Assembly (NCBI GenBank): GCA_020429915.1
Contig: JAGQKV010000012.1
Location: 65,737-129,736, forward strand
Length of the DNA stretch: 64,000 nucleotides
From: Candidatus Omnitrophota bacterium
GTDB lineage: Bacteria > Omnitrophota > Gorgyraeia > Zapsychrales > Zapsychraceae
Direction: 5' to 3'
Shown piece by piece: positions 2,450 through 61,638 of this stretch (position 1 is its first letter; each line of letters begins with the position of its first letter). A model generated the notes under the pieces. That model did not search any database. It worked only from the letters and a program-made list of their open reading frames with translations, and was not told where the DNA came from. Both the position numbers and the translations under genes were made by a program.

Positions 2450-3208
2450 CTAGCGTTCCGTGGCGATATAATCGCCGACGATCCGCCCGTGATCAAAGGC
2501 GAAATCCGCTCCCAACAGGTCGTGATAGCCAATAATCTTGAGCGCCTGGGCGTCGTCGCCGCTGCGCGGCTCGCCCATGCCCGTCCCGATAAAAACCGTC
2601 GTGGAGGTCTCAAAACGCGGATCGCGTCCGGGCTGATCATACACCCCGAATTCTCGCAGGCCGCCGAGATCCAAATTGGTCTCCTCCTTGGCCTCCCGCC
2701 GCGCCGCGGTCTGGGCATCCTCTCCCGGGTCAATAAATCCACCCGGCAACGCCCATCCGTAGGGCGGATTGGAGCGCTCGATCACCACCAGCCCCTCCGG
2801 ACGCTCGATAATCAGATCCACGGTATGATACGGCTCCCGTCCCAGATCGATTTCCAGATGCTTAATATATCCTTCGAAAGTATCCTGATATTCCTCCAGA
2901 TTTTGTCCTCCGTCGACGTTAATGACGATATGCTCCAGACCGCTGTCGCCGGCCTTAAGTATCCGGCGGATCTCCTGAGCGACGATGCGGGCCACACCTC
3001 CGATAGGAAAATCGGGGTAACGGTTGTCGAGGCCGGACATTTCAAACAATTTTTCCTCGCGTTCGGCTGCGCGCCGCAGGATATCCCGCACCCGGTCGCG
3101 GACAGGGCCTTGGGCCTTTACCAGTTCGGGGCCCTCCATCCCGACGGCTTTCTTGTCAGGGGTTCCATCCTTTAAAGCGAACGTGATCTCGGTTCCGCGT
3201 AAATTCAT
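2450..3208 (-). CDS. NUDIX hydrolase with an uncharacterised N-terminal extension of about 140 aa
   Basis: Nudix box GGFIDPGEDAQTAARREAKEETNL (GX5EX7REUXEEXGU). Overlaps cca by 4 nt. Confidence 0.8.
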   Translation of the reverse strand: MNLRGTEITFALKDGTPDKKAVGMEGPELVKAQGPVRDRVRDILRRAAEREEKLFEMSGLDNRYPDFPIGGVARIVAQEIRRILKAGDSGLEHIVINVDGGQNLEEYQDTFEGYIKHLEIDLGREPYHTVDLIIERPEGLVVIERSNPPYGWALPGGFIDPGEDAQTAARREAKEETNLDLGGLREFGVYDQPGRDPRFETSTTVFIGTGMGEPRSGDDAQALKIIGYHDLLGADFAFDHGRIVGDYIATER

Positions 3209-4635
3209 GCTGCGTCCTTTGCTATTTTCTTGGCCAATGCTATGGCCTCGATTTTGGTCTTGATTTTTCCGAGTGAATGCCGTTCCTGAATCTGCGCCAG
3301 GATTTCGCCGATCAAGGGCGAACCGGACACCTTCAAGGCCTTCATGATGTCATGCCCGTTCACCAACGGGACGTACGGTTCTTCTTTTTGCTTATGAAGA
3401 AACTCTTCAATCAGCTGAAGACATATCGCCTCATGATGCCGTTGGTCATCTTCGGTGGTCATCGGCCCGCGTGTCGAACGCTGATCCGCCCACGATAACA
3501 GCGCAATCGCCGCCGCCTCCTCGTCCGTATCGCGAAAATACCGGTACAGCATGCGCGGGCTCGGCCGCTTGTAATTGGAGATGTAACCCGGCCGCATGTG
3601 CCACTGGACCATATCCTCGACGCTATGCCGTTCGTGGGTTGACAATTTCAGCATCCGGCATACCGCCGTCGCGATGCGCCGCCCGACATGTTCATGCCCG
3701 TGGAAAGTGAGCCGCTCGCCCACGCGCTTGCGCGTATCCGGCTTGCCGATATCATGCAACAACCCGGCCAGCTTGATGAGCGCGCGGCGGGAATGTCCGC
3801 CGCCGACCGTCTCATCGAGATAAACCTGAAGTTCCGGATTATCGACCTTGGCGATCAGTATATCCAGCTGACGGACGACCTCAAGCGAATGCGGCCATAC
3901 GTCCAGATGATGATAACCGCCCTGACGACAGTCAAACATCACCCGCACCTGCGGAATCACGCGCTCCAAAAGCCCCACGCGGTCCATCGCCTTGAGAATT
4001 TCCGCGGTCTTGGACGATTCGAGAACCTTAAAGAATTCTTCGCGCACCCGTTCCGGCGACACGTCGCGGATGCGGTCCTTTTCCTTGCGGATTTGATTCA
4101 AAGTCTTGAGCTCGATCTTAAAGCCGAGATTCGCCTTCAGACTGAAGGCGCGCATCATCCGCAGCGGATCGTCCGTGAGCGACCGTATGGATGTCCGCTT
4201 GATGCGCCTGTCCGCAATGTCCTTCCGGGCCCGTTTAACATCAATGATTTGAACCTCAAGTTCATCTCCCTCCGTCAAGGCGTTCAGATCCACAGCCAGG
4301 GTATTGATGGTAAAATCGCGCAAACCGAGGTCGGCGACAAGATCCTCCCCACGGTAACCGGCAAAATCATAGGTAAATAATCGGCCGCCGGTCTTCTTGG
4401 CCACCCGCGCGCACTGATGATCTTCATCCAGAAGGATATACTTACCGCGAATCTCCCGGGCAAACGCCTCGGCCAGCACCAGAGGCCGCCGGTCGACGGC
4501 AAAGTCCAAATCGTTCAGCGGCCGCTTGAGCAAATAGTCTCGCAGGCACCCGCCCACCAGATGCACCTGCAGACGGCGCTTTTTGGCAAGAGCCTGTAAC
4601 GTTTTAAGGACCGGATATTCAGCTAATAGGTTCAT
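3205..4635 (-). CDS. cca: CCA tRNA nucleotidyltransferase with HD domain
   Basis: N-terminal GGCLRDYLL...DLDFAV polymerase-beta head domain. Central HD motifs (LLHDIGK, HGHEHVG). Confidence 0.9.
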   Translation of the reverse strand: MNLLAEYPVLKTLQALAKKRRLQVHLVGGCLRDYLLKRPLNDLDFAVDRRPLVLAEAFAREIRGKYILLDEDHQCARVAKKTGGRLFTYDFAGYRGEDLVADLGLRDFTINTLAVDLNALTEGDELEVQIIDVKRARKDIADRRIKRTSIRSLTDDPLRMMRAFSLKANLGFKIELKTLNQIRKEKDRIRDVSPERVREEFFKVLESSKTAEILKAMDRVGLLERVIPQVRVMFDCRQGGYHHLDVWPHSLEVVRQLDILIAKVDNPELQVYLDETVGGGHSRRALIKLAGLLHDIGKPDTRKRVGERLTFHGHEHVGRRIATAVCRMLKLSTHERHSVEDMVQWHMRPGYISNYKRPSPRMLYRYFRDTDEEAAAIALLSWADQRSTRGPMTTEDDQRHHEAICLQLIEEFLHKQKEEPYVPLVNGHDIMKALKVSGSPLIGEILAQIQERHSLGKIKTKIEAIALAKKIAKDAA

Positions 4636-50077: not shown

Positions 50078-50150
<73 letters not shown>

Positions 50151-50256
50151 TATCTTTTTGGCGTACCGGCCGCTGACGAGCGCTCTGCGAGGACCTGGAT
50201 GACTTCGATGATTGCTCCCACAGCATTTTCGTATTCGGCCGTAACCGCCTCCTTTT

Positions 50257-50340
50257 GCTGGAGTGGTGAAATTGGTAGACGCACTGGATTCAAAATCCAG
50301 CGGGGGCGACCCCATGAGAGTTCGAGTCTCTCCTCCAGCA
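50257..50340 (+). tRNA. tRNA-Leu (anticodon CAA)
   Basis: 84 nt. Acceptor stem GCTGGAG/CTCCAGC with discriminator A. Anticodon loop TTCAAAA. Long variable arm. T-loop TTCGAGT. Confidence 0.9.
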
Positions 50341-50422
50341 TTACTCCCCCTTTCCTTTAATACCGCACGGCCATTGACCCTCCGGACATCTTAAGATACA
50401 CTTGAGAAAAAGGAGACCGCCC

Positions 50423-50956
50423 ATGAAAAATGTGATCCCGCTCCTCGTAGTGCTGTTCGTAGCCGCCACCGGCATCAACGCCGACGCTGAAACCAAGACC
50501 AAGCTGATCCACCTGCGTGACGGATCTTCACTGACCGGTAATGTGCTCTCCCTCAACCGGGGCGAGTACACCATCCAAACCAAGAATCTCGGTGTCATGA
50601 AAGTCCGCCAGGACGATATTGTCAGCATCTCGAACCCCGGCTTTGCGCCGCAAGAAGCCCAGGCAGCGGAACCGCTGATGCCCGGCCAGATGGCACCGCA
50701 TCTGACCAAATCCAACCTGGGACACCAAGTGCAGACACTGCAAAGCAGCATCATGGGCGATCCGGAACTGGTCGAGGACATTCAGGTGTTGATGAGCGAT
50801 CCGGAGATCGTCAAGATCATCCAGGACGAAACGTTTATGCAGAAAATCATGACGCTTGATATGGATTCTATCGAGAACGATCCGCGATACCGGGACCTCA
50901 TGTACAATCCCCGCATGCGGCGCTTCATTCAGAAACTCCAGGCGCGCGATCAATAG
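50423..50956 (+). CDS. Secreted hypothetical protein
   Basis: MKNVIPLLVVLFVAATGINA signal peptide. AGGAG RBS. The track start at 50402 lies upstream of the RBS. Confidence 0.6.
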   Translation: MKNVIPLLVVLFVAATGINADAETKTKLIHLRDGSSLTGNVLSLNRGEYTIQTKNLGVMKVRQDDIVSISNPGFAPQEAQAAEPLMPGQMAPHLTKSNLGHQVQTLQSSIMGDPELVEDIQVLMSDPEIVKIIQDETFMQKIMTLDMDSIENDPRYRDLMYNPRMRRFIQKLQARDQ

Positions 50957-50972: not shown

Positions 50973-52814
50973 TTAGTACGGGACACGCAGGTTCCACAGC
51001 TGCGGATTGCGTGGCAGCGTCGGCCGCTCCGCCGAATTGATCAGCGCGTCGTCGGGAAGGTCATTGAGGGGGACAGGCCGGCGGCTCGTCAAACCGAAAC
51101 GTTTGGCATTTAATATCAGATGCCGCGCCCCGAAAGTCTTGTATTCCTTATTCAAAGCCCCCGCCTCTTTTCGAATCATCACAAAGCTGTGCCGGTAGTC
51201 GCTGACAAAGTCCTGAATGAACTTGTCGGTAATCGCCTTGCGGCCGGCCAGAACCTCGACCTTGTCGCTGTTCTCCTGCCTCACCCTGAGTTGGCTTTTC
51301 TCGTTAAACATGGGCGACAAGAGCTTCAGAGCCTCCGGGTTGTCATTCTCCAGGGTAGAGAAATACGGAGTAATCTCCGCAAAACCGGCGGCACGCAGCG
51401 TCGAGAAGTATACTTCCCAATATTGCCGGTCATGCAGATCAACGATCTCTGAAGCATCGAATACACCAAACCCGCCCTCCGCCAATGACGTCAGGACGAA
51501 GTGAAAGAATTCGCGGCTGTAGAGTTTGCTGAGATCGTAATCCTTGACCCGGGGAAAGTCCATGTAAATAGCGTCATACAGCGTGTCGTTGTGACGCAGG
51601 TAGTGGTAAGCATCGGCGGCGATCGTTTTGACCCGCGGATCGGCGAGAGCGCCGCGATTGGCGTAACGCAGCACCGGGTCCTCTGACGCGACTTTGAGTA
51701 TCTGCCGGTCGATATCGACAAGGGTGACTTCTTTGACGTCGGGGTATTTTAAAATCTCGCGCAACAACAATCCGTCGCCGCCGCCGAGAATCAGCACCCG
51801 CCGGGGGACCCGGTTATTGTATATGACAGGGACATGCGCGAAATACTCGTGGTTGATATTCTCGGTATCGAGTCGGAACTGGAAAAAACCGTCCATAAAC
51901 AGCACGACCCCTTTAGGGAACTCCGGGTCCTTGTCGAATTTGCCGCTGTAAATCGCCCACAGGTCGTCGAAGACATCCTCCTCGGGCGGATAATACACCA
52001 GATCAATTTTTTGATAAGGTGAACTCAACCGGGTCACCGTGGGCCATTCTTTCATCGGCCGGAAGAGGTCCCGGATGCTTTCGGCGCTTTGGGCGTAGTA
52101 GTAATACTTCTGGAGAAAATATTGATTCAGACTCTTGGCCTGCCACAAACCGGCGCTCATGAGCAGCAGCACGACACTCACGGCACCGCGCCGCAGCCAG
52201 CCGCGCGGCAGATCGAGTTGGAGGTAAAGCGCGGCCAGAATATTGATTAATCCGACGATAAAGGCGATGGTGAGCAATTCAAATCGCGCCAACAAAACCA
52301 GCGGAAACAGGACTGCGCCGCACAGGGAGCCGAAATAATCGATACTCAGAATACGGTTGGTGATCCCGGGGCCCTTATCGTTAGTGGCCTGACCGATCCC
52401 AATCAAAAGCGGCAACTCGCACCCGGTCAAGAACCCGATCTTTACAACCGCGCCGAGGACCACCAGATAGAAGATCCACGCCATATCGAAAAAGTTGTTA
52501 TTGACCCAGATATACCGGACCACCATATGGGCCACGTGGATAACCGCCAGCGACAACCCGCCGATCAGACTCAACAGGATTTCCACGCGCACCAGGGCGG
52601 CGCGGCAGTCCTCGTCGCCGAACCAGTGCCGGTAATTTAGCGCGCCGAGCCCCATCGATCCGAGAAAGGCCCCCAGCCCCAGACTGTACCAGACCACCGT
52701 ATTGGCGGCATAGAACGATACGGTCTGCGCCAGCAACAATTCATATACAATGCTGCACGCCGCCAGCAGGAAGGTAATCGCGTAGAGTGACTTATTGCCG
52801 CCACGGAACTTCAT
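50973..52814 (-). CDS. speE: Membrane-embedded polyamine aminopropyltransferase (spermidine synthase-like): N-terminal multi-TM domain plus SpeE catalytic domain and a C-terminal extension
   Basis: About 7 TM helices over aa 1-220. Then the spermidine-synthase motif VLILGGGDGLLLREILKYPDVKEVTLVDID and D...DFP. Total 613 aa. Confidence 0.8.
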   Translation of the reverse strand: MKFRGGNKSLYAITFLLAACSIVYELLLAQTVSFYAANTVVWYSLGLGAFLGSMGLGALNYRHWFGDEDCRAALVRVEILLSLIGGLSLAVIHVAHMVVRYIWVNNNFFDMAWIFYLVVLGAVVKIGFLTGCELPLLIGIGQATNDKGPGITNRILSIDYFGSLCGAVLFPLVLLARFELLTIAFIVGLINILAALYLQLDLPRGWLRRGAVSVVLLLMSAGLWQAKSLNQYFLQKYYYYAQSAESIRDLFRPMKEWPTVTRLSSPYQKIDLVYYPPEEDVFDDLWAIYSGKFDKDPEFPKGVVLFMDGFFQFRLDTENINHEYFAHVPVIYNNRVPRRVLILGGGDGLLLREILKYPDVKEVTLVDIDRQILKVASEDPVLRYANRGALADPRVKTIAADAYHYLRHNDTLYDAIYMDFPRVKDYDLSKLYSREFFHFVLTSLAEGGFGVFDASEIVDLHDRQYWEVYFSTLRAAGFAEITPYFSTLENDNPEALKLLSPMFNEKSQLRVRQENSDKVEVLAGRKAITDKFIQDFVSDYRHSFVMIRKEAGALNKEYKTFGARHLILNAKRFGLTSRRPVPLNDLPDDALINSAERPTLPRNPQLWNLRVPY

Positions 52815-52817
52815 AGG

Positions 52818-53171
52818 CTAATATCCGCGCTCCAGTATCCGCTGTTTCATATCCCTGGCCCCGAACTCGCGCCGGACGTGTTCCACCGCCTGTTCCGGAA
52901 GCATCTCCCCGCAGGTGAGGATATCAAAGGCTACAAACTCATCCTCCGGCCACGTGTGAACGGAAAAATGCGATTCGGCGATCAGGATCACGCCGGTCAC
53001 GCCGTGCGGTTCGTATTGCTTGAAAAAATGTTCCACCACGGTCGCACGGCTGACTTCTGCCGCCTGCAACAGCACGGGCTTGACCTGCTCCACCCGGCTG
53101 ATTTTCTCCGCCGGGCAGCCGATCAATTCAATGAGGAAATGGCGACCGAATGAATGTTTCAATTTATCCAC
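52818..53171 (-). CDS. speH: S-adenosylmethionine decarboxylase proenzyme, small class 1A, pyruvoyl-dependent
   Basis: AESHFSVHTWPE self-cleavage/pyruvoyl site. 117 aa. Confidence 0.85.
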   Translation of the reverse strand: MDKLKHSFGRHFLIELIGCPAEKISRVEQVKPVLLQAAEVSRATVVEHFFKQYEPHGVTGVILIAESHFSVHTWPEDEFVAFDILTCGEMLPEQAVEHVRREFGARDMKQRILERGY

Positions 53172-53174
53172 GGA

Positions 53175-53876
53175 CTAAACTCCTTTATTGAGGTACAGAT
53201 CCACGCAAAACTCCTTGATTCCCGGCGTAAATATCAAACCGATCGCCATAACGATAAAAAGGGCGACTTGAAAATACAGTAACGGATAAAAACGCCTCGC
53301 CTCTTCCCTGTCCGGTTCCGTATCGAGATAGTTGGTCAGCAAGCCGGCGCAACTGTTCAATAACCCGGTTATAAACGCGGCCATCACCAAGCCGGTGACC
53401 GGATAGTAGATAAACGCGAACACCATTGTTCCGATGACCGCGCCGAAATAGCTGAAGCCGAGCACCTTGCTTTCCGCGTGCGGGACCTCGTCCTTCATCA
53501 GTTCCATCAGGATCGGCAGTTCCTTACCGGTGAGATATCCGACAAGCAGAATCAACCCGTGAGACAACACGGCAAACAACGGTCCGGAACCGAACAGACG
53601 GTCCAATCCGTACAGCCACAGCATCAGAAAACCGCCCGCGAAGGTCAGCCATATCTCGGTCCTGAGAAGCTGGCACCGCGGGTTTCGCAAGCCGCTTTCC
53701 ACGGACCGCGCGCCCAAACCCATGGCAAAAAGGTACAGACCGATCGTCACGCTGTAGCGCAGGACGGTATTACGCAAAAACAGACAGAGCGACTGCGCCA
53801 GCAACAACTCATAGCAGATGCTGCACAGGGAAACGACAACAGTAATGAAAAGTAAGAGTGTCTTGCGATCAGGCAT
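53175..53876 (-). CDS. Transmembrane-only paralog of the spermidine-synthase N-terminal membrane domain
   Basis: 233 aa and all TM. The N-terminus LLLFITVVVSLCSICYELLLAQSLCLF aligns with LYAITFLLAACSIVYELLLAQTVSFY of the 613-aa SpeE-like protein. No catalytic domain. Confidence 0.65.
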   Translation of the reverse strand: MPDRKTLLLFITVVVSLCSICYELLLAQSLCLFLRNTVLRYSVTIGLYLFAMGLGARSVESGLRNPRCQLLRTEIWLTFAGGFLMLWLYGLDRLFGSGPLFAVLSHGLILLVGYLTGKELPILMELMKDEVPHAESKVLGFSYFGAVIGTMVFAFIYYPVTGLVMAAFITGLLNSCAGLLTNYLDTEPDREEARRFYPLLYFQVALFIVMAIGLIFTPGIKEFCVDLYLNKGV

Positions 53877-54924
53877 AATCGACTTTCCTGCGGCGATCGA
53901 TAATATAAGCGATCAGATAACCAATGATTAATGTGCCGGCGACCAGACCGAGGTAAGCGGCCAGCGCCTGCGGAAAGGTCATGCGAAAATGAAAAAGGAC
54001 ATAATGGGTGGCGTGATACCCCGCGATCGTATTCAGCAGGAATAACCACAAAATAGCCCGCCCCATCTTGACCATGAACGACCGTTCACACAACCGCCGC
54101 CACTGCTCGCTCCGGCGAAACAGCGTTTCCAGCCCCCAAATCCAAACCATGCTCGTCCCGGTAATGCCCAGGATATAGAACGGCGACGCCTTAAACATAT
54201 CCCCTCCCCACAGCGCCGTGGTCACTACCGGATGATAGTCGCCGGTCGCCAGGGACACGGCGACCAGCGCCAGCCCCGCCGGCAGCAACGCGCCGAACAG
54301 CCTTCCGTTACCCGTCTCCAAGACATAACCGATGAGCAGTCCGGCGGTAAAAACGAACAACCACGGACACAACGGCCAAAAGTGTTCCCCCGTCTGGGAG
54401 CCGATGACAATCGCATACCAGTACTGGTCGGACAACTCTTGCCACGGAAACCGGTCGGACAGCGCCAGAGCCGCGCACCCCATGCCGAACGCCATTCCCA
54501 CACCGACCGCCCGCGGCAGCCAGCGGATGAGCGGAAACGTCATCATCATCGCCAGGGCGATAAACTGCAGGACATCCCATTCGTCGATGCCGTATATCCC
54601 CCAGCACATGTAGTTGATCAAAAATCCCAGCGACAACAACCCCAGCGCCCGCTTGGCGACAAATCCGAAACCGCTATTTTTGCGGACGGTAGCGATGTAA
54701 AACGTCACCCCCGCCAGCAACGGCACTTCGAACCCGAACACATGCAGACTGAAATAACCGAAGCAGGGAAACGGCCCGGCCATCTCGGGCCAACGCATTT
54801 CAAACCGGGTGAGATCAAGCCACATCCACACCCATTCATGCAGACCGATCAGATAGATGATGCCCAATCCCTTGAGAAATTCAATGCTGGTATAGCGACG
54901 ACTACTCATAACGCGGCAAAACAT
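53869..54924 (-). CDS. Acyltransferase-3 (AT3, OatA N-terminal-like) family integral membrane protein
   Basis: About 10 TM helices. N-terminal AT3 signature R..(I)EFLKGLGIIYLIGLH corresponds to the family pattern R..LDGLRG.A...V..H. Confidence 0.6.
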   Translation of the reverse strand: MFCRVMSSRRYTSIEFLKGLGIIYLIGLHEWVWMWLDLTRFEMRWPEMAGPFPCFGYFSLHVFGFEVPLLAGVTFYIATVRKNSGFGFVAKRALGLLSLGFLINYMCWGIYGIDEWDVLQFIALAMMMTFPLIRWLPRAVGVGMAFGMGCAALALSDRFPWQELSDQYWYAIVIGSQTGEHFWPLCPWLFVFTAGLLIGYVLETGNGRLFGALLPAGLALVAVSLATGDYHPVVTTALWGGDMFKASPFYILGITGTSMVWIWGLETLFRRSEQWRRLCERSFMVKMGRAILWLFLLNTIAGYHATHYVLFHFRMTFPQALAAYLGLVAGTLIIGYLIAYIIDRRRKVDYA

Positions 54925-56128
54925 CCTCGGTTAAGTAGCGCGCGATATGCCCGGCCATCAGCGCGTGCATGCGGCCGGAGTTGTGGCCGTCATCGGTGTA
55001 GTAGACCGGATCGCGGACATTGATTCTGTCATTATAAATCAAGTCGTTCAGATCCAGGACATGATATTGCTGTTTTTCCCAATGTTGCGCGAAGCGCAGA
55101 TACTGTTTCGGCTGCCCGGCCGCCTTCCGGACGAGGTCCTTGCCGGTGGGCAGAATCAGGATGACGGGGATAGCGCCTTCTGCACGGACCGCGCCGACGA
55201 ACCGGTCGATCACGACCGTGGCCACGCGGTAACCCTCGGAGTCGATATTAAAAATATTGTCTTTGAGGAACAACATATCCGGGTGCTGAGCCCCCGAGAG
55301 CTGATAACCGACCAACTTCAGATAGCGCACCATTGCCAGGTGATCCCATCCGCCGCTGCGGTACAACTGGTGATAATAGAAGTCATGTTCGCCGAGCCGG
55401 CGGATCGTGGCCGCGGGCTTATTCAACAGTAAGCGGTAATCCTCAAGCTGCTGAAAGGGGTTCTGCACCTCGGTGAGCTGTCCGTCCTGTTCCAAAAACC
55501 TCGGTTTGGTCAGCGGGAATTCTGTTTGGGGGGAATAAAACGGCCGGAAGACATTCAGATTGCGAAAGACATTCTCGCTGTTAAAGCCGAAGATGACGAT
55601 TCGCGGGTGATAGTCCCGCCCCTCATACCGGTAACGCCAATAGGCCTGATCCTGCGCGTACCCGCTGACCCCGAAATTAAGGACCTCCCACTCCGGACGC
55701 AGCCCTTCGAGTTGCGCCTGCCAGGTATCGGGATACGTTACCCCGTGCCCGAACGTAAAGGAATCACCGAAGGTGGCTACACGCAACCGGTCCGCAGCCG
55801 GCCGCGCATCAACGACCGCCGCAGCCGCCCTGAAGCCCTGCGTATTGCACCGGAAGCCGGTCTTGGTCGTCGCCGGGTTGGGCACCCAGCCCAACCGCGC
55901 GTGATAACGGATGTGACCTTCTTCGCCGGCGAGCATGCGGCGGATAATGTCCCGCTGGCCGTCGCTCAAGCGAGCTTCCGGCAATGGAGAATATTCGATC
56001 CCTTTCCACTTCTTTAATAATGACAGCGCTCCGGCGGCGGTCAGTTCGGCCACCAGAAATAATCCGAGAATCAGCAGGATAGAAAACAGGAAGTGGTTGA
56101 AACGGCGTTTTGCGGCTGGTTGTTGCAT
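54902..56128 (-). CDS. Membrane-anchored SGNH/GDSL hydrolase-family protein
   Basis: N-terminal TM anchor and block-I motif ATFGDSFTFGHG. Overlaps the AT3 gene by 23 nt. Confidence 0.7.
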   Translation of the reverse strand: MQQPAAKRRFNHFLFSILLILGLFLVAELTAAGALSLLKKWKGIEYSPLPEARLSDGQRDIIRRMLAGEEGHIRYHARLGWVPNPATTKTGFRCNTQGFRAAAAVVDARPAADRLRVATFGDSFTFGHGVTYPDTWQAQLEGLRPEWEVLNFGVSGYAQDQAYWRYRYEGRDYHPRIVIFGFNSENVFRNLNVFRPFYSPQTEFPLTKPRFLEQDGQLTEVQNPFQQLEDYRLLLNKPAATIRRLGEHDFYYHQLYRSGGWDHLAMVRYLKLVGYQLSGAQHPDMLFLKDNIFNIDSEGYRVATVVIDRFVGAVRAEGAIPVILILPTGKDLVRKAAGQPKQYLRFAQHWEKQQYHVLDLNDLIYNDRINVRDPVYYTDDGHNSGRMHALMAGHIARYLTEDVLPRYE

Positions 56129-56184: not shown

Positions 56185-57789
56185 TCATTGCCGGTTGAGC
56201 CCCAGCGCCTTGGGCGGCGCAACGGTAGGCGGAAAGCGGCGGTCAATCCGGATACGTGTCGCCCCGCGTACCGGCCACCCCATCCGTTCGCAGATATGAC
56301 GCCAGATGTGATACAGATTATATTTCGCGTACAGGATGTGGCTGACGGACAAGCGCCCCAAGCTGAAGACGACATCGGCGCAGAAAAGGGCCAAGTTACT
56401 GACGAACGGCGGGGCCTTGCTGAAAAATTTGGGATCCAAATGAGGCCGCAACCATGCAGGGACCTGCGGCATCAGTTTGAGAACGACCTGGTAGCCGCGA
56501 TAAATCGGCAAATGCTCCGGCTGAATGGTCCGGTTCGGTCTGAGAAAGACGGTCAGCTCCAGCCCGTCGTTCATCTTCTCCACATCGGCCGCGGTAATCC
56601 GGCCGGAGGCCAGCGCCTGCCCGACGATCTCGGTCCCCGGATAAAACATCACAAAATACGTGTCGATCATACCCGGCGTGCTGCGCAGAAAGAGTTGTCG
56701 CGCCATTTCCTGTGACTCGAGCGGCTCGCCCGGCAATCCGAACAGATGGTGGGCACGGACGTGGATATGATATTTCTTCAACCAAGCGATCGACTCGGCG
56801 ACCTTGTCATTCTTTTCTGAACGTTTGACCACGCGACGCTTGAACGACTCGTTCGCGCTTTGCACGCCCAAGTCCACCTGCACGCAACCCGCCTCGGCCA
56901 GCATGCGGGCGATATCTTCACTCATGTAATTGGCATGGATCTCCACCTGGAACGGCAGTCCGATTTCTTCACCGTAACGCTCACAAAATTCCTTGAGCCA
57001 CGGTTTATTGATGATAAAAACGTCGTCATAAAAACGGATCAGCCGTGGCCGGTAGCGTGCCTTGACGACACGTAACTCTTCCATGACGTGATCGACGCTA
57101 CGCTGCCGGATATAACCGGTTTTTTTGTCCCCCGGCAGGTTGGCGAAGAAACTGTTAAAACAGAAGGTGCAGCGATAGGGACAACCCCGGGAGGCCATCG
57201 TCAGATAGGAGTCGTGCTGCGGGACGTATTCTTCCCATATGGCTTTGTCGTAATGCGGCAGGGAATCCAGATCCATCACGAATCCGTCCTGGGGTCCGCG
57301 CACCCGTGTTCCGTCGGGCAATTTGTAGAGCGTGTTGGAGATTTCCTGTCCGGTCAGACCGCCGTTCTCCAGGGCCGCGCAGATCCGCGGAAAGGCCAGG
57401 TCGGCCTCACCGATCACTACGATATCCACCTCCGGCTGATCGATCACCCGATCGGGCAGTGCCGAGGGGTGCACCCCGCCGAAGATAACCTTCACCCCGG
57501 GACGCAGGGACTTGGCCTCCCGTGCGATGCTCAGCGCCCACTGATAAGTCGCGGTCAACACGGAAAAGGCCAAGACGTCGGGTTGAGTTTCTCTGATTTT
57601 GTCGATCACCCGCTGACGGTCGTCGAACATGCGGGCAAGGAAGGGAACGTGGAGATGGTCGCGGTCGTGAAAGAGGGATACGCTGAAGGCCAGATGGACC
57701 TCGTGCCCTTCCCTCTTGAGGATCGCGGAAAGCTGGGAAATTCCCAGACTCTCAAATCCAACCGTGGCAAACGTGACGACCATAGGCAT
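56185..57789 (-). CDS. B12-binding domain radical SAM protein
   Basis: N-terminal cobalamin-binding Rossmann-like domain and radical SAM cluster motif ASRGCPYRCTFC. Confidence 0.8.
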   Translation of the reverse strand: MPMVVTFATVGFESLGISQLSAILKREGHEVHLAFSVSLFHDRDHLHVPFLARMFDDRQRVIDKIRETQPDVLAFSVLTATYQWALSIAREAKSLRPGVKVIFGGVHPSALPDRVIDQPEVDIVVIGEADLAFPRICAALENGGLTGQEISNTLYKLPDGTRVRGPQDGFVMDLDSLPHYDKAIWEEYVPQHDSYLTMASRGCPYRCTFCFNSFFANLPGDKKTGYIRQRSVDHVMEELRVVKARYRPRLIRFYDDVFIINKPWLKEFCERYGEEIGLPFQVEIHANYMSEDIARMLAEAGCVQVDLGVQSANESFKRRVVKRSEKNDKVAESIAWLKKYHIHVRAHHLFGLPGEPLESQEMARQLFLRSTPGMIDTYFVMFYPGTEIVGQALASGRITAADVEKMNDGLELTVFLRPNRTIQPEHLPIYRGYQVVLKLMPQVPAWLRPHLDPKFFSKAPPFVSNLALFCADVVFSLGRLSVSHILYAKYNLYHIWRHICERMGWPVRGATRIRIDRRFPPTVAPPKALGLNRQ

Positions 57790-57807: not shown

Positions 57808-57836
57808 ATGATAACGGGCCCCCGGGACCCGGTCAA
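57808..57836 (-). promoter_or_regulatory. Sigma70-type promoter (TTGACC-17-TATCAT) for the rSAM-SGNH-AT3-speE operon
   Basis: Minus strand reads TTGACCgggtcccgggggcccgtTATCAT. The spacer is a GC-rich near-palindrome. The -10 is about 19 nt from the rSAM ATG. Confidence 0.5.
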
Positions 57837-58530: not shown

Positions 58531-59439
58531 TTAACCGGCCGCGGCAGCCGCTTTTTCGGACACGCGGACATTCATCGGCGGCGCCGATCCGTCCTTGTCT
58601 TTTCCCATGTAGAGCGTCACATGGGGGAACGGGATCTCGATATCCCGCTCGTCAAAGCGTTTCTTGAGTCGCTTATTGAATTCACGGCCGACCGCCCACT
58701 GCTTGATAGGCTTGGTCATTGTCCGCGCCTTGATTATCACGGCGGAATTGTCGAACTTGTCCAGCCCGAGGATCTCGATCGGGGCCAAGATGTCCTTTTT
58801 GAATTCCGGATCCTGACGCAGCTCTTCATCGACCGCCTTAATGACCTCAATCACCTCATCGACGTCTTCACGGTAAGCGACACCGATATCGAATACGTAA
58901 CGGGAATACTCTTTCGTCATATTGGTCACCACCCCGATCTGTCCGTTGCGGACGTAATGGACGTTGCCGGCGAGGTCGCGCAGGATGACCATGCGCAGGG
59001 TGACCTTTTCCACCAGGCCGCCTTTGTCGGCGATATTGACCACGTCGCCGACCCGGATTTGATCTTCCAAGAGAATGAAGAAACCGCTGATCACGTCTTC
59101 AACCAGTTTCTGTGCCCCGAAACCGACCGCCAATCCGACAACCCCGGCCGTGGCCAGGATCGGACCGATGTCGATGCCGAGCTCCTTGAGAATCATCATA
59201 CCGGCCATAACGAAAATCCCGATTTTCAGAACATAGCGGACAATCGAACTCAGGGTATCGGTCCTTTTTTGCAATTCGGCATTATCGGCTTCCTTCTTGC
59301 TGATCCATTGGATCAATTTCGCGGACAGCAATTCCGCCGCCTTGAGCCCGATCACCATCAGGATCATTATCAGGACGATCTGGAGACCGCTGGTGATCAG
59401 CCACTCACCGACGGCCTGTAAATACTTTTGTGCATCCAT
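58531..59439 (-). CDS. Mechanosensitive ion channel, MscS family
   Basis: TM3-beta domain signature GVVGLAVGFGAQKLVEDVISGFFILLEDQIRVGDVV...IPN-like. Confidence 0.85.
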   Translation of the reverse strand: MDAQKYLQAVGEWLITSGLQIVLIMILMVIGLKAAELLSAKLIQWISKKEADNAELQKRTDTLSSIVRYVLKIGIFVMAGMMILKELGIDIGPILATAGVVGLAVGFGAQKLVEDVISGFFILLEDQIRVGDVVNIADKGGLVEKVTLRMVILRDLAGNVHYVRNGQIGVVTNMTKEYSRYVFDIGVAYREDVDEVIEVIKAVDEELRQDPEFKKDILAPIEILGLDKFDNSAVIIKARTMTKPIKQWAVGREFNKRLKKRFDERDIEIPFPHVTLYMGKDKDGSAPPMNVRVSEKAAAAAG

Positions 59440-59530
59440 TTTATTGCTCCTCTCACTTGCGTCTCGGCGTTAATTCACCCTTTATGTCAACCCTCCGAGT
59501 CGCCGCCTGATCGACGGCGCAAGAAATCTA

Positions 59531-61039
59531 TTACGGCTTCGGCCACACGCGGAATAATTGGCGGGGATAGCGGCCCGATTGCCAGCAGCTCTCCTGCCAA
59601 AATTCGTAAGGCCGAACCCCCACCGAATCCAGCCGGTAACCCTCCGTCATCATCGCAGCGAAGCGGCCCTGCGGATCATAATTATACAGACCATGTTCGG
59701 TTACGTAAACCGGGATTCCGCTGTTCAGCAGTCCGTCAAGCTCCCGGCGGAAGGCGGCGTGCGCCTCTTCATCGATGCGATACTGATCATGAAACCGGGA
59801 AAGCAGATTCAGATTGCTGTAGTAACGAAAGAACAGCGAATCGTCCACGGTGATGATGCGCGCATCCGGCGGGGCGAGCCGTGCCACCCAGCGAACGTAT
59901 TCCGGAATGGTCGCCTGCCGGTGCCGGGTCGTCAGGACCGGTTCGACCATACACACCATCCCGACCGCCATGACCACGGCCAGGAGCATGGCCAAAATAC
60001 GTCTGAACCGCCCGGCCGCACAATTATGGGAAAAGAAGCAGGCCATCAGGATGCACAGCGGCGGATGCAGGATGGTCAAAAATCGCGGGACCAGCGTGTA
60101 CAGCCGGCTGTACAACAGCACCGGGAAAAGCAGCCACAGCATCAAAAATAAATACGCCGGCCCGCCGCGCTGCTTCGACAATTTCCATCCCCCGATAAAG
60201 ATCAGCATGATCCCCACCGGAGTAAATGTATAAATGATGTGATAGAGGATATTCAGCAACGGCTTGAACAACAGCCCGATGGAAGCATGCGGAATCACCG
60301 ATGCCTCCTTATACTTCACGAATTGGGCCAAATAGGCCGCCCGTTCACTGCCGATGAGGTACGGCAGATAAAAGATGCTCATCGCCGCTGCCGCGACGGA
60401 ACCGAACACCAAGAAAGTCCGCAAGCGGTCCCGCGTGCTGACGGTCCACAACAAAAAGGCCAGCGGCACCGCCATCAGCACCAGATTCTGCAACCGGGCC
60501 GCCCCCAGAAACCCGATGAACGCCGCCGCGACGACCAAATCCCTTCCCCGCCCGGAATCCCGAAAACGCAACAGAAAATTAATCCCGGTCAGTAAGAAAA
60601 AGAGTGCCGGCGTATGACTCAATCCGTAAGTGGAAACCGCCAGAAATATGGGGGTCACCGATAAGAAAAATGCCGCGAAAAACGCGGTGTCGCGGTCAAT
60701 GAGGCGCCGGGTTACCTGATATAGCAACGGTACGCAAGCAGCTCCCATCACGACACTCATGAAGTTAACGGCCAGCACCGGGTCATGCACGCCGACGATC
60801 TTACCCAACAGGACAAAGATTCCGCCGCACACAATGGTGAGCGGATAACCCGATCCGAAAGAGTAGGACAATTGCAGGGTGGTGACGAGCTGCTCGGCCT
60901 TTAATGCCAGATTCAGGGTATCGACACTGTAGGGGCCGATACTGATCCAGAGTAACCGCGGCACAAAACTGACCACGAACAGTAGTGTAGCGACAACGCC
61001 CGCCGGGATCTGCCGCCGTGAGTGTGATTCAGACGTCAC
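59531..61039 (-). CDS. GT-C fold membrane glycosyltransferase-like protein (ArnT/PMT-like)
   Basis: 502 aa, about 12 TM helices in the N-terminal two-thirds plus a C-terminal soluble domain. Fold-level call only. Confidence 0.5.
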   Translation of the reverse strand: MTSESHSRRQIPAGVVATLLFVVSFVPRLLWISIGPYSVDTLNLALKAEQLVTTLQLSYSFGSGYPLTIVCGGIFVLLGKIVGVHDPVLAVNFMSVVMGAACVPLLYQVTRRLIDRDTAFFAAFFLSVTPIFLAVSTYGLSHTPALFFLLTGINFLLRFRDSGRGRDLVVAAAFIGFLGAARLQNLVLMAVPLAFLLWTVSTRDRLRTFLVFGSVAAAAMSIFYLPYLIGSERAAYLAQFVKYKEASVIPHASIGLLFKPLLNILYHIIYTFTPVGIMLIFIGGWKLSKQRGGPAYLFLMLWLLFPVLLYSRLYTLVPRFLTILHPPLCILMACFFSHNCAAGRFRRILAMLLAVVMAVGMVCMVEPVLTTRHRQATIPEYVRWVARLAPPDARIITVDDSLFFRYYSNLNLLSRFHDQYRIDEEAHAAFRRELDGLLNSGIPVYVTEHGLYNYDPQGRFAAMMTEGYRLDSVGVRPYEFWQESCWQSGRYPRQLFRVWPKP

Positions 61040-61638
61040 GATTTGATAATCTCCACGGGGTTGTTAAAAAGATTCGCATTGGGAATCAATACAGTCCGGT
61101 TATCACTCTCCAAGGTGGTGTAACGCAGGTCGACGCGGCGCACGGTCCCGTCGTACCCGGAGACCTTGATATGCGATCCGATGCGAAACGGCTGGTACAC
61201 CAGGACAAGCACGCCGGCCAGGACGTTGGACAGCGCATCTTTCAGGGCAAATCCCAGAGCGAAACCGGTCAGGCCCAGCCCCGCGACCATAGCCGCGACA
61301 TCAATACCCATTGTCCCCAATCCGGCAATCAGTCCGACAACGATCAGCACCATTTTCACAATGCGCCCCAACAGATAAAAAACATCCTGCTGAATCCGCG
61401 ATTTCGTGGCCAGCGTCAGAATTATCTTTTCAATGACGATGGCTATCGCCCAGATAATCAAACAGGCCGCCACTCCGGCCAGAATGCGGGCCGGTGCGGT
61501 AATGAACAGCGATGCAACGGGCGCGGCGGTTTCGACGAACACGGTAACCTCCTCGATTGTGATGTCTTTTTTCTTTCCCGGACGCGTGGAGAAAGAAATA
61601 TTTAATGGTCCGATCACCGGATACGTTAACCGAAACAT
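61036..61638 (-). CDS. Small MscS-family mechanosensitive channel
   Basis: GLGLTGFALGFALKDALSNVLAGVLVLVYQPFRIGSHIKVSGYDGTVRRVDLRYTTLESDNRTVLIPNANL MscS signature. Confidence 0.8.
   Translation of the reverse strand: MFRLTYPVIGPLNISFSTRPGKKKDITIEEVTVFVETAAPVASLFITAPARILAGVAACLIIWAIAIVIEKIILTLATKSRIQQDVFYLLGRIVKMVLIVVGLIAGLGTMGIDVAAMVAGLGLTGFALGFALKDALSNVLAGVLVLVYQPFRIGSHIKVSGYDGTVRRVDLRYTTLESDNRTVLIPNANLFNNPVEIIKS

Follow-up and report, generated by a model that had tools for sequence, protein, structure and literature searches.

Is an acyltransferase gene that overlaps a gene for an SGNH enzyme one half of a divided OatA, or does its product serve a different pathway? The question is raised by a minus-strand operon in a 64,000-nucleotide stretch of DNA, hereafter the window, from a Candidatus Omnitrophota bacterium (assembly GCA_020429915.1, contig JAGQKV010000012.1, positions 65,737 to 129,736). 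The initial annotation saw here a membrane-anchored SGNH hydrolase and a polytopic AT3 acyltransferase, encoded separately and in that order among polyamine-type enzymes, and read them as a split form of OatA. The two genes and their order are confirmed. On the comparative evidence, the acyltransferase is part of a conserved membrane aminopropyl-transfer cassette, and the SGNH protein is an optional add-on rather than the missing half of an OatA. The analysis is one of sequence inference in uncultured bacteria, and acyltransferase residues are numbered according to the 346-residue form of the protein.

In the open reading frame (ORF) listing of the window, six genes follow one another on the minus strand, head to tail, from 57789 to 50973. 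They encode, in order, a radical S-adenosylmethionine (SAM) enzyme, the SGNH protein, the acyltransferase of the TmAT superfamily, a seven-transmembrane-helix (7TM) protein, an S-adenosylmethionine decarboxylase (AdoMetDC), and a 7TM-fused aminopropyltransferase (Table 1). The successive junctions are a gap of 56 nt, the SGNH/acyltransferase overlap, a second overlap of 8 nt, and two spacings of 3 nt.

Conservation of the Locus

Eleven Omnitrophota loci that contain the acyltransferase gene were compared: the window, L094, L095, L001, L087, L084, L085, L086, L088, L089, and L090. Only the upstream side could be read in L088 and L089, and L086 is a contig of 2.9 kb. Close homologs are annotated as metagenome-assembled genomes of Candidatus Omnitrophica/Omnitrophota. 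Wherever the flank is known in these Omnitrophota loci, the acyltransferase gene adjoins a gene for a 7TM-fused aminopropyltransferase. Acyltransferase gene and cassette are co-directional, with an 8-nt overlap, in the window, L001, L084, L085, L087, L094, and L095 (the overlap with the 233-residue 7TM gene recurring in L001, L084, L085, L087, and L094). In L086 the acyltransferase gene converges with the SpeE-like gene, and in L090, where the acyltransferase shows 30% identity (E = 6e-48), it diverges from the 7TM-SpeE pair.

The SGNH gene is found directly upstream of the acyltransferase gene in five of the eleven loci (the window, L094, L095, L001, and L087). In the available DNA of the remaining six (L084, L085, L086, L088, L089, and L090), no SGNH gene was seen beside it; co-occurrence of the two is not obligatory. 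The slot may be filled by other genes. A secreted protein of 133 or 134 residues that matches TIGR04073 (exosortase-system-associated) lies between the radical SAM and acyltransferase genes in L084 (7547-7951) and L085 (7515-7916), RlmN directly precedes the acyltransferase gene in L088, and a 543-residue polytopic membrane protein with C-terminal TPR repeats does so in L089. The small secreted protein was considered as an SGNH remnant and rejected, since it has no similarity to the SGNH protein and belongs to TIGR04073 instead. The radical SAM gene is also variable, being present in L084, L085, and L094 and missing from L001 and L087.

The SGNH family itself is widespread, with members in Acidobacteriota, Nitrospirota, Planctomycetota, delta-proteobacteria, and other phyla. 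In none of 80 loci from other phyla was a gene for the acyltransferase, the 7TM protein, AdoMetDC, or SpeE found within 10 kb of the SGNH-family gene. The immediate neighbors in those phyla include glycosyltransferases of the GT2, PMT_2, and GT1/GT4 types, epimerases, a carbamoyltransferase, and LPG_synthase_TM; clustering and Pfam scans of the same 80 loci revealed no MBOAT or AT3 protein among them. As the gene comparisons indicate, the architecture is nested: a widespread aminopropylation cassette, joined in Omnitrophota by a TmAT protein, and joined further by variable accessories (SGNH, radical SAM, and TIGR04073 proteins).

The Aminopropylation Cassette

The polyamine-type enzymes reported in the initial annotation are readily recognized. 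AdoMetDC (PF02675, 115.7 bits; NCBIfam equivalog TIGR03330, 121.6 bits against a cut-off of 75.65) carries the ESH processing site and the TCG motif. The 613-residue protein consists of an N-terminal polytopic membrane domain, a spermidine-synthase-like domain (84.3 bits), and a C-terminal extension; it matches NF002956 with 285 bits and displays the GGGDG motif that marks aminopropyltransferases using decarboxylated SAM. A class 1b AdoMetDC hence stands beside a polytopic-membrane/SpeE-like fusion that has the acidic residue of GxG(D/E)G. The free 233-residue protein is a paralog of the N-terminal membrane domain of its larger neighbor (NF002956 positions 18-231, 110 bits; about 32% identity to residues 1-237 of the 613-residue protein), which suggests a hetero-oligomeric membrane domain. 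For the 7TM proteins the positive-inside charge count is ambiguous, and their topology is not relied on here.

The cassette is not confined to Omnitrophota. More than 500 full-length homologs of the 613-residue protein occur in several phyla, and the trio of a free 7TM paralog of about 233 residues, AdoMetDC, and a 7TM-SpeE enzyme of about 620 residues is also present in Pseudomonadales, Bdellovibrionales, and Gemmatimonadota, there without acyltransferase or SGNH protein. A conserved C-terminal extension is found on the SpeE-like enzyme of the cassette. One homolog of 750 residues, P0134, joins AdoMet_dc and spermidine-synthase domains in a single chain, a Rosetta-stone fusion that links the two enzymes of the cassette. 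In the Gemmatimonadota locus L093, a second polytopic-membrane/SpeE-like fusion of 681 residues (2555-4600) lies directly upstream of the cassette, so that some genomes have a pair of distinct membrane-fused aminopropyltransferase-like genes next to each other.

Class 1b AdoMetDC genes next to membrane/SpeE-like fusions were reportedly noted by Li et al. in 2019 (Biochem J 476:2579), who are said to have proposed a target other than an ordinary polyamine. 7TM-fused spermidine-synthase-like proteins are described in PMC11237479, which cites Li et al. 2019 on AdoMetDC gene linkages for “aminopropylation of other substrates.”

The Membrane Acyltransferase

The acyltransferase matches PF07786 (HGSNAT_cat, formerly DUF1624) with 43.3 bits against a cut-off of 22, residues 10-210 covering positions 1-192 of the 222-position profile. 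PF01757 (Acyl_transf_3) gives no match, and PF07786 is alone among Pfam families at E ≤ 1. The two families belong to one clan (CL0316), recently united as the TmAT superfamily (PMC12423673). The AlphaFold model, with a predicted local distance difference test (pLDDT) score of 82.9, contains ten long helices, the number of transmembrane (TM) segments given in the initial annotation. In a Foldseek search the model retrieved human HGSNAT (E = 4e-5, template-modeling score 0.64) and GWT1 (0.51), and nothing else at E < 0.1. By profile and model, then, this is a genuine TmAT-superfamily protein, of the HGSNAT_cat family and with an AT3-like histidine. The AT3 identity proposed at the outset holds at the level of the clan and of the R/K-x10-H motif, and gives way to PF07786 at the level of the family.

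That motif lies within the R...FLKGLG...GLH signature pointed out in the initial annotation, which can be written as R5, S8, and E10-x-x-K13-x10-H24. Across 12 aligned sequences R5, K13, and H24 do not vary, and E10 is nearly invariant. Exactly ten residues separate K13 from H24, as in the R/K-x10-H motif defined for TM helix (TMH) 1 of AT3 proteins (PMC7448272). HGSNAT has an asparagine at the position of the AT3 histidine (PMC12423673); this HGSNAT_cat-specific residue is not found here, the position being held by the invariant His24. Of the RxxR motif expected after TMH2 or in TMH3, only K86-R87-A-L-G is seen, with R87 (about 90% conserved) opening helix 81-107 and no second arginine. The TmAT positions listed in PMC12423673 (DxxR in TMH1, glycine in TMH6, and SxxxY in TMH9) have counterparts in ExxK, in G190/G194 of helix 180-199, and in T294xxxY298-H299 of helix 286-307. 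Replacement of DxxR by ExxK is conservative, and lysine also occurs in Cas1 and TraX. Since the family profile found nothing among Protein Data Bank (PDB) sequences at E ≤ 1, a residue-level alignment with HGSNAT is impossible; the motif positions were assigned from predicted helices with no structural superposition, and the FxxxxG motif of TMH2 was not placed.

Conserved residues also occur in the loop between helices 5 and 6 (residues 150-179), namely Y163, Y165, and H176. An RR-rich N-terminus and a DRRRK C-terminus fit an N-in/C-in arrangement, which would put this loop outside. The two tyrosines are invariant in the 12 aligned proteins, among them P0084, P0086, and P0088 from loci that lack an SGNH gene, and L090 keeps Y-x-Y. 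Because they are retained where no SGNH gene is seen, the TmAT protein can probably act without one. TmAT proteins are known to bind acyl-CoA in a trans-membrane pore and to acylate an acceptor on the far side, a reaction for which stand-alone members need no SGNH domain (PMC12423673, PMC9558356, PMC7448272).

The family is small. An exhaustive HMMER scan returned 318 representatives at E ≤ 1e-3, of which 40 reached E ≤ 1e-30, and a metagenome scan with the acyltransferase alignment returned two loci only. Among the best 150 of the 318 representatives, essentially all are 330-400 residues long and the longest has 464; Rosetta-stone fusions to SGNH domains were looked for in these 150 and none was found. 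The uniform lengths indicate a stand-alone family without SGNH fusions. Nor does the SGNH family provide fused relatives, none of its 77 members examined exceeding 532 residues. Descent of the pair by fission of a fused, OatA-type ancestor, which the idea of a split OatA implied, is not borne out.

The overlap between the two genes is shorter than first described. As listed, the acyltransferase ORF spans 53869-54924 (351 residues), giving the 23-nt overlap of the initial annotation. The ATG at 54924 is the start in no homolog. A second ATG at 54909 is the start in 11 of 11 homologs and in every gene call on related contigs, yielding a protein of about 346 residues; a GAGGA sequence stands 15 nt ahead of this second ATG and runs directly into the first, with no spacer between. 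Because the homologs all start at the second ATG, the true overlap is taken to be 8 nt (ATGAGTAG). It measures 8 nt in L094 (83-86% identical) and 11 nt in L095 (62-65%), and is replaced by gaps of 57 nt in L001 and 46 nt in L087, relatives that are 47-52% identical.

The SGNH Protein

A single N-terminal TM helix (residues 13-31) precedes the SGNH domain. Three basic residues (KRR) and no acidic residue come before the helix, and this distribution suggests an N-in orientation with the domain outside; the call is a weak one, since lysines also follow the helix. The GDSFTFGH motif noted in the initial annotation spans residues 121-128. The blocks typical of SGNH enzymes are block I, G121-D-S123; block II, N151-x-G153-x-x-G156; block III, G181-x-x-x-E-N186; and block V, D379-D380-G-H382. 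In a 45-member family alignment, G121-D122-S123, N151, D160-Q161, R100, R189, K208, and H382 are invariant. The Ser/His/Asp set sought by the initial annotation is present in this copy, where D379 and D380 precede H382, and neither the lack of such a triad here nor the lack of AT3-type scoring in the membrane partner was encountered.

Assignment to the SGNH superfamily comes from the fold rather than from Pfam: Lipase_GDSL_2 (PF13472) scores 26.1 bits, below its gathering score of 32.9, and covers blocks I-II only. The model (pLDDT 93.2) has the SGNH fold, with 52 PDB matches at E ≤ 1e-3 in Foldseek and template-modeling scores, normalized to the target, of up to 0.76. The best 50 of these 52 are SGNH-type proteins, de novo designed scaffolds apart. 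CgnD heads them (E = 9e-8), followed by TesA, acetyl-xylan esterases, and generic SGNH esterases. With Ser123 and His382 invariant and a confident model, the active site is predicted to be intact. In its histidine-containing half, the family profile also matches two acetyltransferases, AlgJ (E = 1.4e-6) and AlgX (E = 5.6e-5).

The family is unusual in the number of its invariant or near-invariant arginines and lysines (R100, R116, R165, R189, K208, and R210), and an LGW motif (residues 79-81) lies between the anchor and the catalytic core. These features hint at an anionic substrate, for example a phosphate-containing lipid or polymer.

Possible Functions of the Operon

The reading we favor, to which we would give about an even chance, is that of an envelope-modification operon in which the cassette adds an aminopropyl group to some molecule of the membrane or envelope, the TmAT protein acylates the product or a neighboring molecule at the outer face, and the SGNH protein acts as an accessory, either relay or eraser. 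The core unit would be the stand-alone acyltransferase together with the membrane aminopropylation cassette. AdoMetDC would furnish decarboxylated SAM. The SpeE-like enzyme with its fused 7TM domain would then, together with the free 7TM paralog, aminopropylate a membrane-associated or extracytoplasmic substrate. By the mechanism of its family, the TmAT protein may thread acyl-CoA, probably acetyl-CoA, through its ten-helix pore and hand the acyl group on, at the outer face, to the cassette product or to a nearby envelope molecule. In those lineages that have it, the SGNH protein might take the acyl group onto Ser123 and pass it to the acceptor, in the manner of the OatA SGNH domain, or it might remove the group, as Ape1 does. 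The constancy of the cassette as partner points away from O-acetylation of peptidoglycan or lipopolysaccharide (LPS) as the default target.

Several observations weigh against parts of this reading. Since six of the eleven loci show no SGNH gene next to that for the acyltransferase, a relay through the SGNH protein cannot be essential. The topology of that protein is a prediction from charge counts, and the aspartate three residues before His382 is not conserved across the 45-member family. Among the top 50 Foldseek matches of its model there is no OatA, PatB, AlgX, or DltD, and the nearest solved folds are hydrolases. The segment N151-F-G-V-S-G156 of block II keeps its canonical glycine and so is not of the transferase type. 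PatB and OatA replace this glycine by serine or asparagine, a change proposed to favor transfer over hydrolysis (PMC12148441). With Gly156 retained, the SGNH protein looks hydrolase-like by a criterion that was derived from OatA and PatB only and may not hold for other SGNH transferases. Finally, the flanking order ACCA, RlmN, cluster, and homolog of the 184-residue protein described below is conserved among the relatives; with regional gene order so broadly conserved, some of the adjacency could reflect inherited order and not function.

It is possible, if somewhat doubtful, that the SGNH protein is simply a hydrolase, either an Ape1-like editing esterase or amidase or a lipase or esterase with some unrelated substrate in the envelope, and receives no acyl group from the acyltransferase. 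The canonical Gly156 of block II and Asn186 of block III favor such a role, as do the resemblance of the model to TesA and acetyl-xylan esterases, the dispensability of the gene across lineages, and the wide distribution of the family with no acyltransferase partner. Translational coupling to the acyltransferase in the close clade argues the other way, as does the likeness of the histidine half to the transferases AlgJ and AlgX, and the narrow derivation of the block II criterion reduces its force.

A more specific form of the envelope-modification reading is that of an N-acyl-aminopropyl decoration carried by a membrane or envelope molecule. The 7TM-SpeE pair would draw on decarboxylated SAM and add an aminopropyl group to a substrate other than an ordinary polyamine, the TmAT protein would N-acylate the new primary amine outside, by the chemistry of HGSNAT, the SGNH protein would serve as relay or eraser, and the B12-binding radical SAM enzyme would add a further modification. 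Taken as a whole, this scheme seems rather unlikely. If it were true, it would supply the first named downstream step for the widespread “polyamine-independent” AdoMetDC/membrane-spermidine-synthase cassette, and the first TmAT protein that works with an unfused SGNH partner.

We consider it quite unlikely that the pair is a two-gene equivalent of OatA, in which an AT3-like protein would be acetylated from acetyl-CoA and a periplasmic SGNH protein would transfer the group to a glycan such as peptidoglycan or LPS, with the polyamine genes as mere neighbors. This proposal would account for the TmAT fold with its R/K-x10-H motif, for an intact serine and histidine in an SGNH protein whose own TM anchor could stand in for the eleventh helix of OatA, for the overlap of 8-11 nt in the close clade, and for the similarity to AlgJ and AlgX. 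A co-oriented PMT_2 glycosyltransferase gene about 3.4 kb upstream, and the GT2, GT4, and PMT_2 genes that adjoin SGNH relatives in other phyla, also count in its favor. It is opposed by the six orthologous loci where no SGNH gene was seen, by the attachment of the acyltransferase to the aminopropyl cassette wherever the flank is known, by the absence of fused relatives of either gene, by the block II glycine, and by SGNH relatives elsewhere that have neither a TmAT nor an MBOAT neighbor.

That SGNH and acyltransferase genes have no functional link, each acting in a separate pathway and their adjacency being the conserved gene order of this Omnitrophota clade, is very improbable. The shared flanking order and the insertion or deletion of radical SAM, SGNH, TIGR04073, and MscS/PMT_2 genes at one site speak for it. 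Against it, the acyltransferase gene is joined to both its neighbors by stop/start overlaps of 8-11 nt and stays beside a SpeE-like gene despite the changes of orientation in L086 and L090.

Returning to the envelope-modification reading, the locus ties an outward-facing, acyl-CoA-dependent acyltransferase to an AdoMetDC/membrane-aminopropyltransferase cassette that is found in many phyla. The link suggests that the cassette product is located in the membrane or envelope and is acylated, and narrows the search by lipidomics and envelope chemistry.

Comparison with Known Acylation Systems

With OatA, OafA, and OafB the pair shares a ten-helix acyl-CoA-pore domain with the R/K-x10-H motif, a Ser/His SGNH domain predicted to lie outside on a single TM tether, and tight genetic coupling. 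It differs from them in being encoded by two genes in reverse order, SGNH first, in a membrane part of the HGSNAT_cat/DUF1624 rather than the PF01757 type, in its lack of fused relatives, in an SGNH component that is optional across loci and retains the block II glycine, and in a genetic context that is an aminopropylation cassette and not a glycan locus. What survives of the split-OatA idea is a coupled pair composed of a TmAT-clan membrane protein and an SGNH-fold protein; membership in the OatA type itself fails, because the pair is not one polypeptide, shows no evidence of fission, is not obligatory, and has no transferase-type SGNH site.

A separate membrane acyltransferase with a membrane-anchored SGNH protein is also the arrangement in PatA/PatB/Ape1, AlgI/AlgJ/AlgX, and DltB/DltD. 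The accessory esterase Ape1 is a plausible analog of the SGNH protein in function, and the profile matches to AlgJ and AlgX extend over the histidine block. In those systems the partner is an MBOAT protein; here it has the TmAT fold, and no MBOAT gene of the PatAB, AlgIJFX, or DltBD kind is present in the operon. The catalytic residues of AlgX and AlgJ are arranged in the order Asp-His...Ser. The present protein has the canonical SGNH arrangement, Ser...His.

HGSNAT and the stand-alone bacterial AT3 proteins (Oac, GumF/G, and OpgC) resemble the acyltransferase in being stand-alone units of ten TMHs able to act without an SGNH protein. HGSNAT is both the best Pfam and the best structural match, and it acylates an amine, the type of group that an aminopropyltransferase creates. 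The differences are the AT3-type His24 in place of the HGSNAT asparagine, the absence of the extra luminal domain and helix of HGSNAT, and an identity of only 12-14%.

The AdoMetDC and membrane-fused spermidine-synthase-like cassette agrees with the known arrangement in placing a class 1b AdoMetDC beside a fusion of an N-terminal polytopic membrane domain with a C-terminal SpeE-like domain. It differs in the extra free 7TM paralog and, in Omnitrophota, in the coupled TmAT protein, with or without an SGNH gene. We know of no description of a TmAT protein, with or without an SGNH partner, in company with such a cassette, and searches of the literature on DUF1624, membrane spermidine synthase, and Omnitrophota polyamines yielded no account of this gene combination. 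An unfused and translationally coupled TmAT/SGNH pair attached to an AdoMetDC/membrane-SpeE cassette appears to be new. Published layouts are of two kinds, an MBOAT protein with a separate SGNH protein or a fused AT3-SGNH protein, and a review leaves open the question of a “missing” SGNH partner for stand-alone AT3 proteins (PMC9558356). The locus is a candidate for a third layout, in which a TmAT protein has a separate, translationally coupled SGNH protein, and the close relatives without an SGNH gene form a natural comparison set.

Other Features of the Window

Coordinates are collected in Table 1. The promoter-like sequence TTGACC-17-TATCAT lies a short distance ahead of the start codon of the radical SAM gene; sites of this kind show no enrichment over shuffled sequences.

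Table 1. Operon genes, sequence elements, and surrounding features. Positions are those of the window unless another locus is named.
Feature	Position	Strand	Basis
B12-binding radical SAM enzyme, 534 residues, first in the co-directional run	56185..57789	-	Profile matches
Membrane-anchored SGNH-fold Ser/His enzyme, 408 residues	54902..56128	-	Motifs, alignment, model
GDSFTFGH of the SGNH protein	55745..55768		
His382 of the SGNH protein	54983..54985		
Stand-alone 10-TMH acyltransferase, TmAT superfamily (HGSNAT_cat/DUF1624 type), 346 residues	53869..54909	-	Pfam, alignment, model
SGNH/acyltransferase stop/start overlap, 8 nt, ATGAGTAG	54902..54909	-	Sequence; read as translational coupling
Polytopic membrane protein, 233 residues; start overlaps acyltransferase stop by 8 nt	53175..53876	-	NF002956 match
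Class 1b AdoMetDC, 117 residues	52818..53171	-	PF02675, TIGR03330
Membrane + spermidine-synthase-like aminopropyltransferase, 613 residues	50973..52814	-	Pfam/NCBIfam, GGGDG
Promoter-like TTGACC-17-TATCAT	57808..57836	-	Consensus match only
Aminopropylation cassette, window	50973..53876		
Aminopropylation cassette, L091	4943..7920		
Aminopropylation cassette, L092	4939..7845		
Aminopropylation cassette, L093	4602..7558		
MscS/PMT_2 block	58531..61638		
Convergent 184-residue protein	50402..50956	+	
tRNA-Ala(GGC) and tRNA-Leu(CAA)	50078..50341	+	
Giant ORF, 1730 residues	44630..49822	-	
Giant ORF, 2134 residues	20472..26876	-	

Between RlmN and the operon lies a block that encodes a truncated MscS-like protein (200 residues), a PMT_2/ArnT-like GT-C glycosyltransferase (502 residues), and a full MscS protein (302 residues), followed by a 177-residue protein with no family match. 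L001 and L087 lack the block, and in them RlmN is immediately next to the SGNH gene.

The 184-residue protein convergent to the operon end has a hydrophobic N-terminus, possibly a signal peptide, and a sub-threshold match to the STI1/HOP DP domain. It occupies this position in all the Omnitrophota relatives for which downstream sequence was read (L001, L084, L085, L087, L090, and L094). Beyond it, two tRNA genes separate this neighbor from the nearer of two giant minus-strand ORFs. That ORF, of 1730 residues, begins with TTG and has a hydrophobic stretch behind a charged N-terminus, again a possible signal peptide; its sole match is a weak C-terminal one to LysM.

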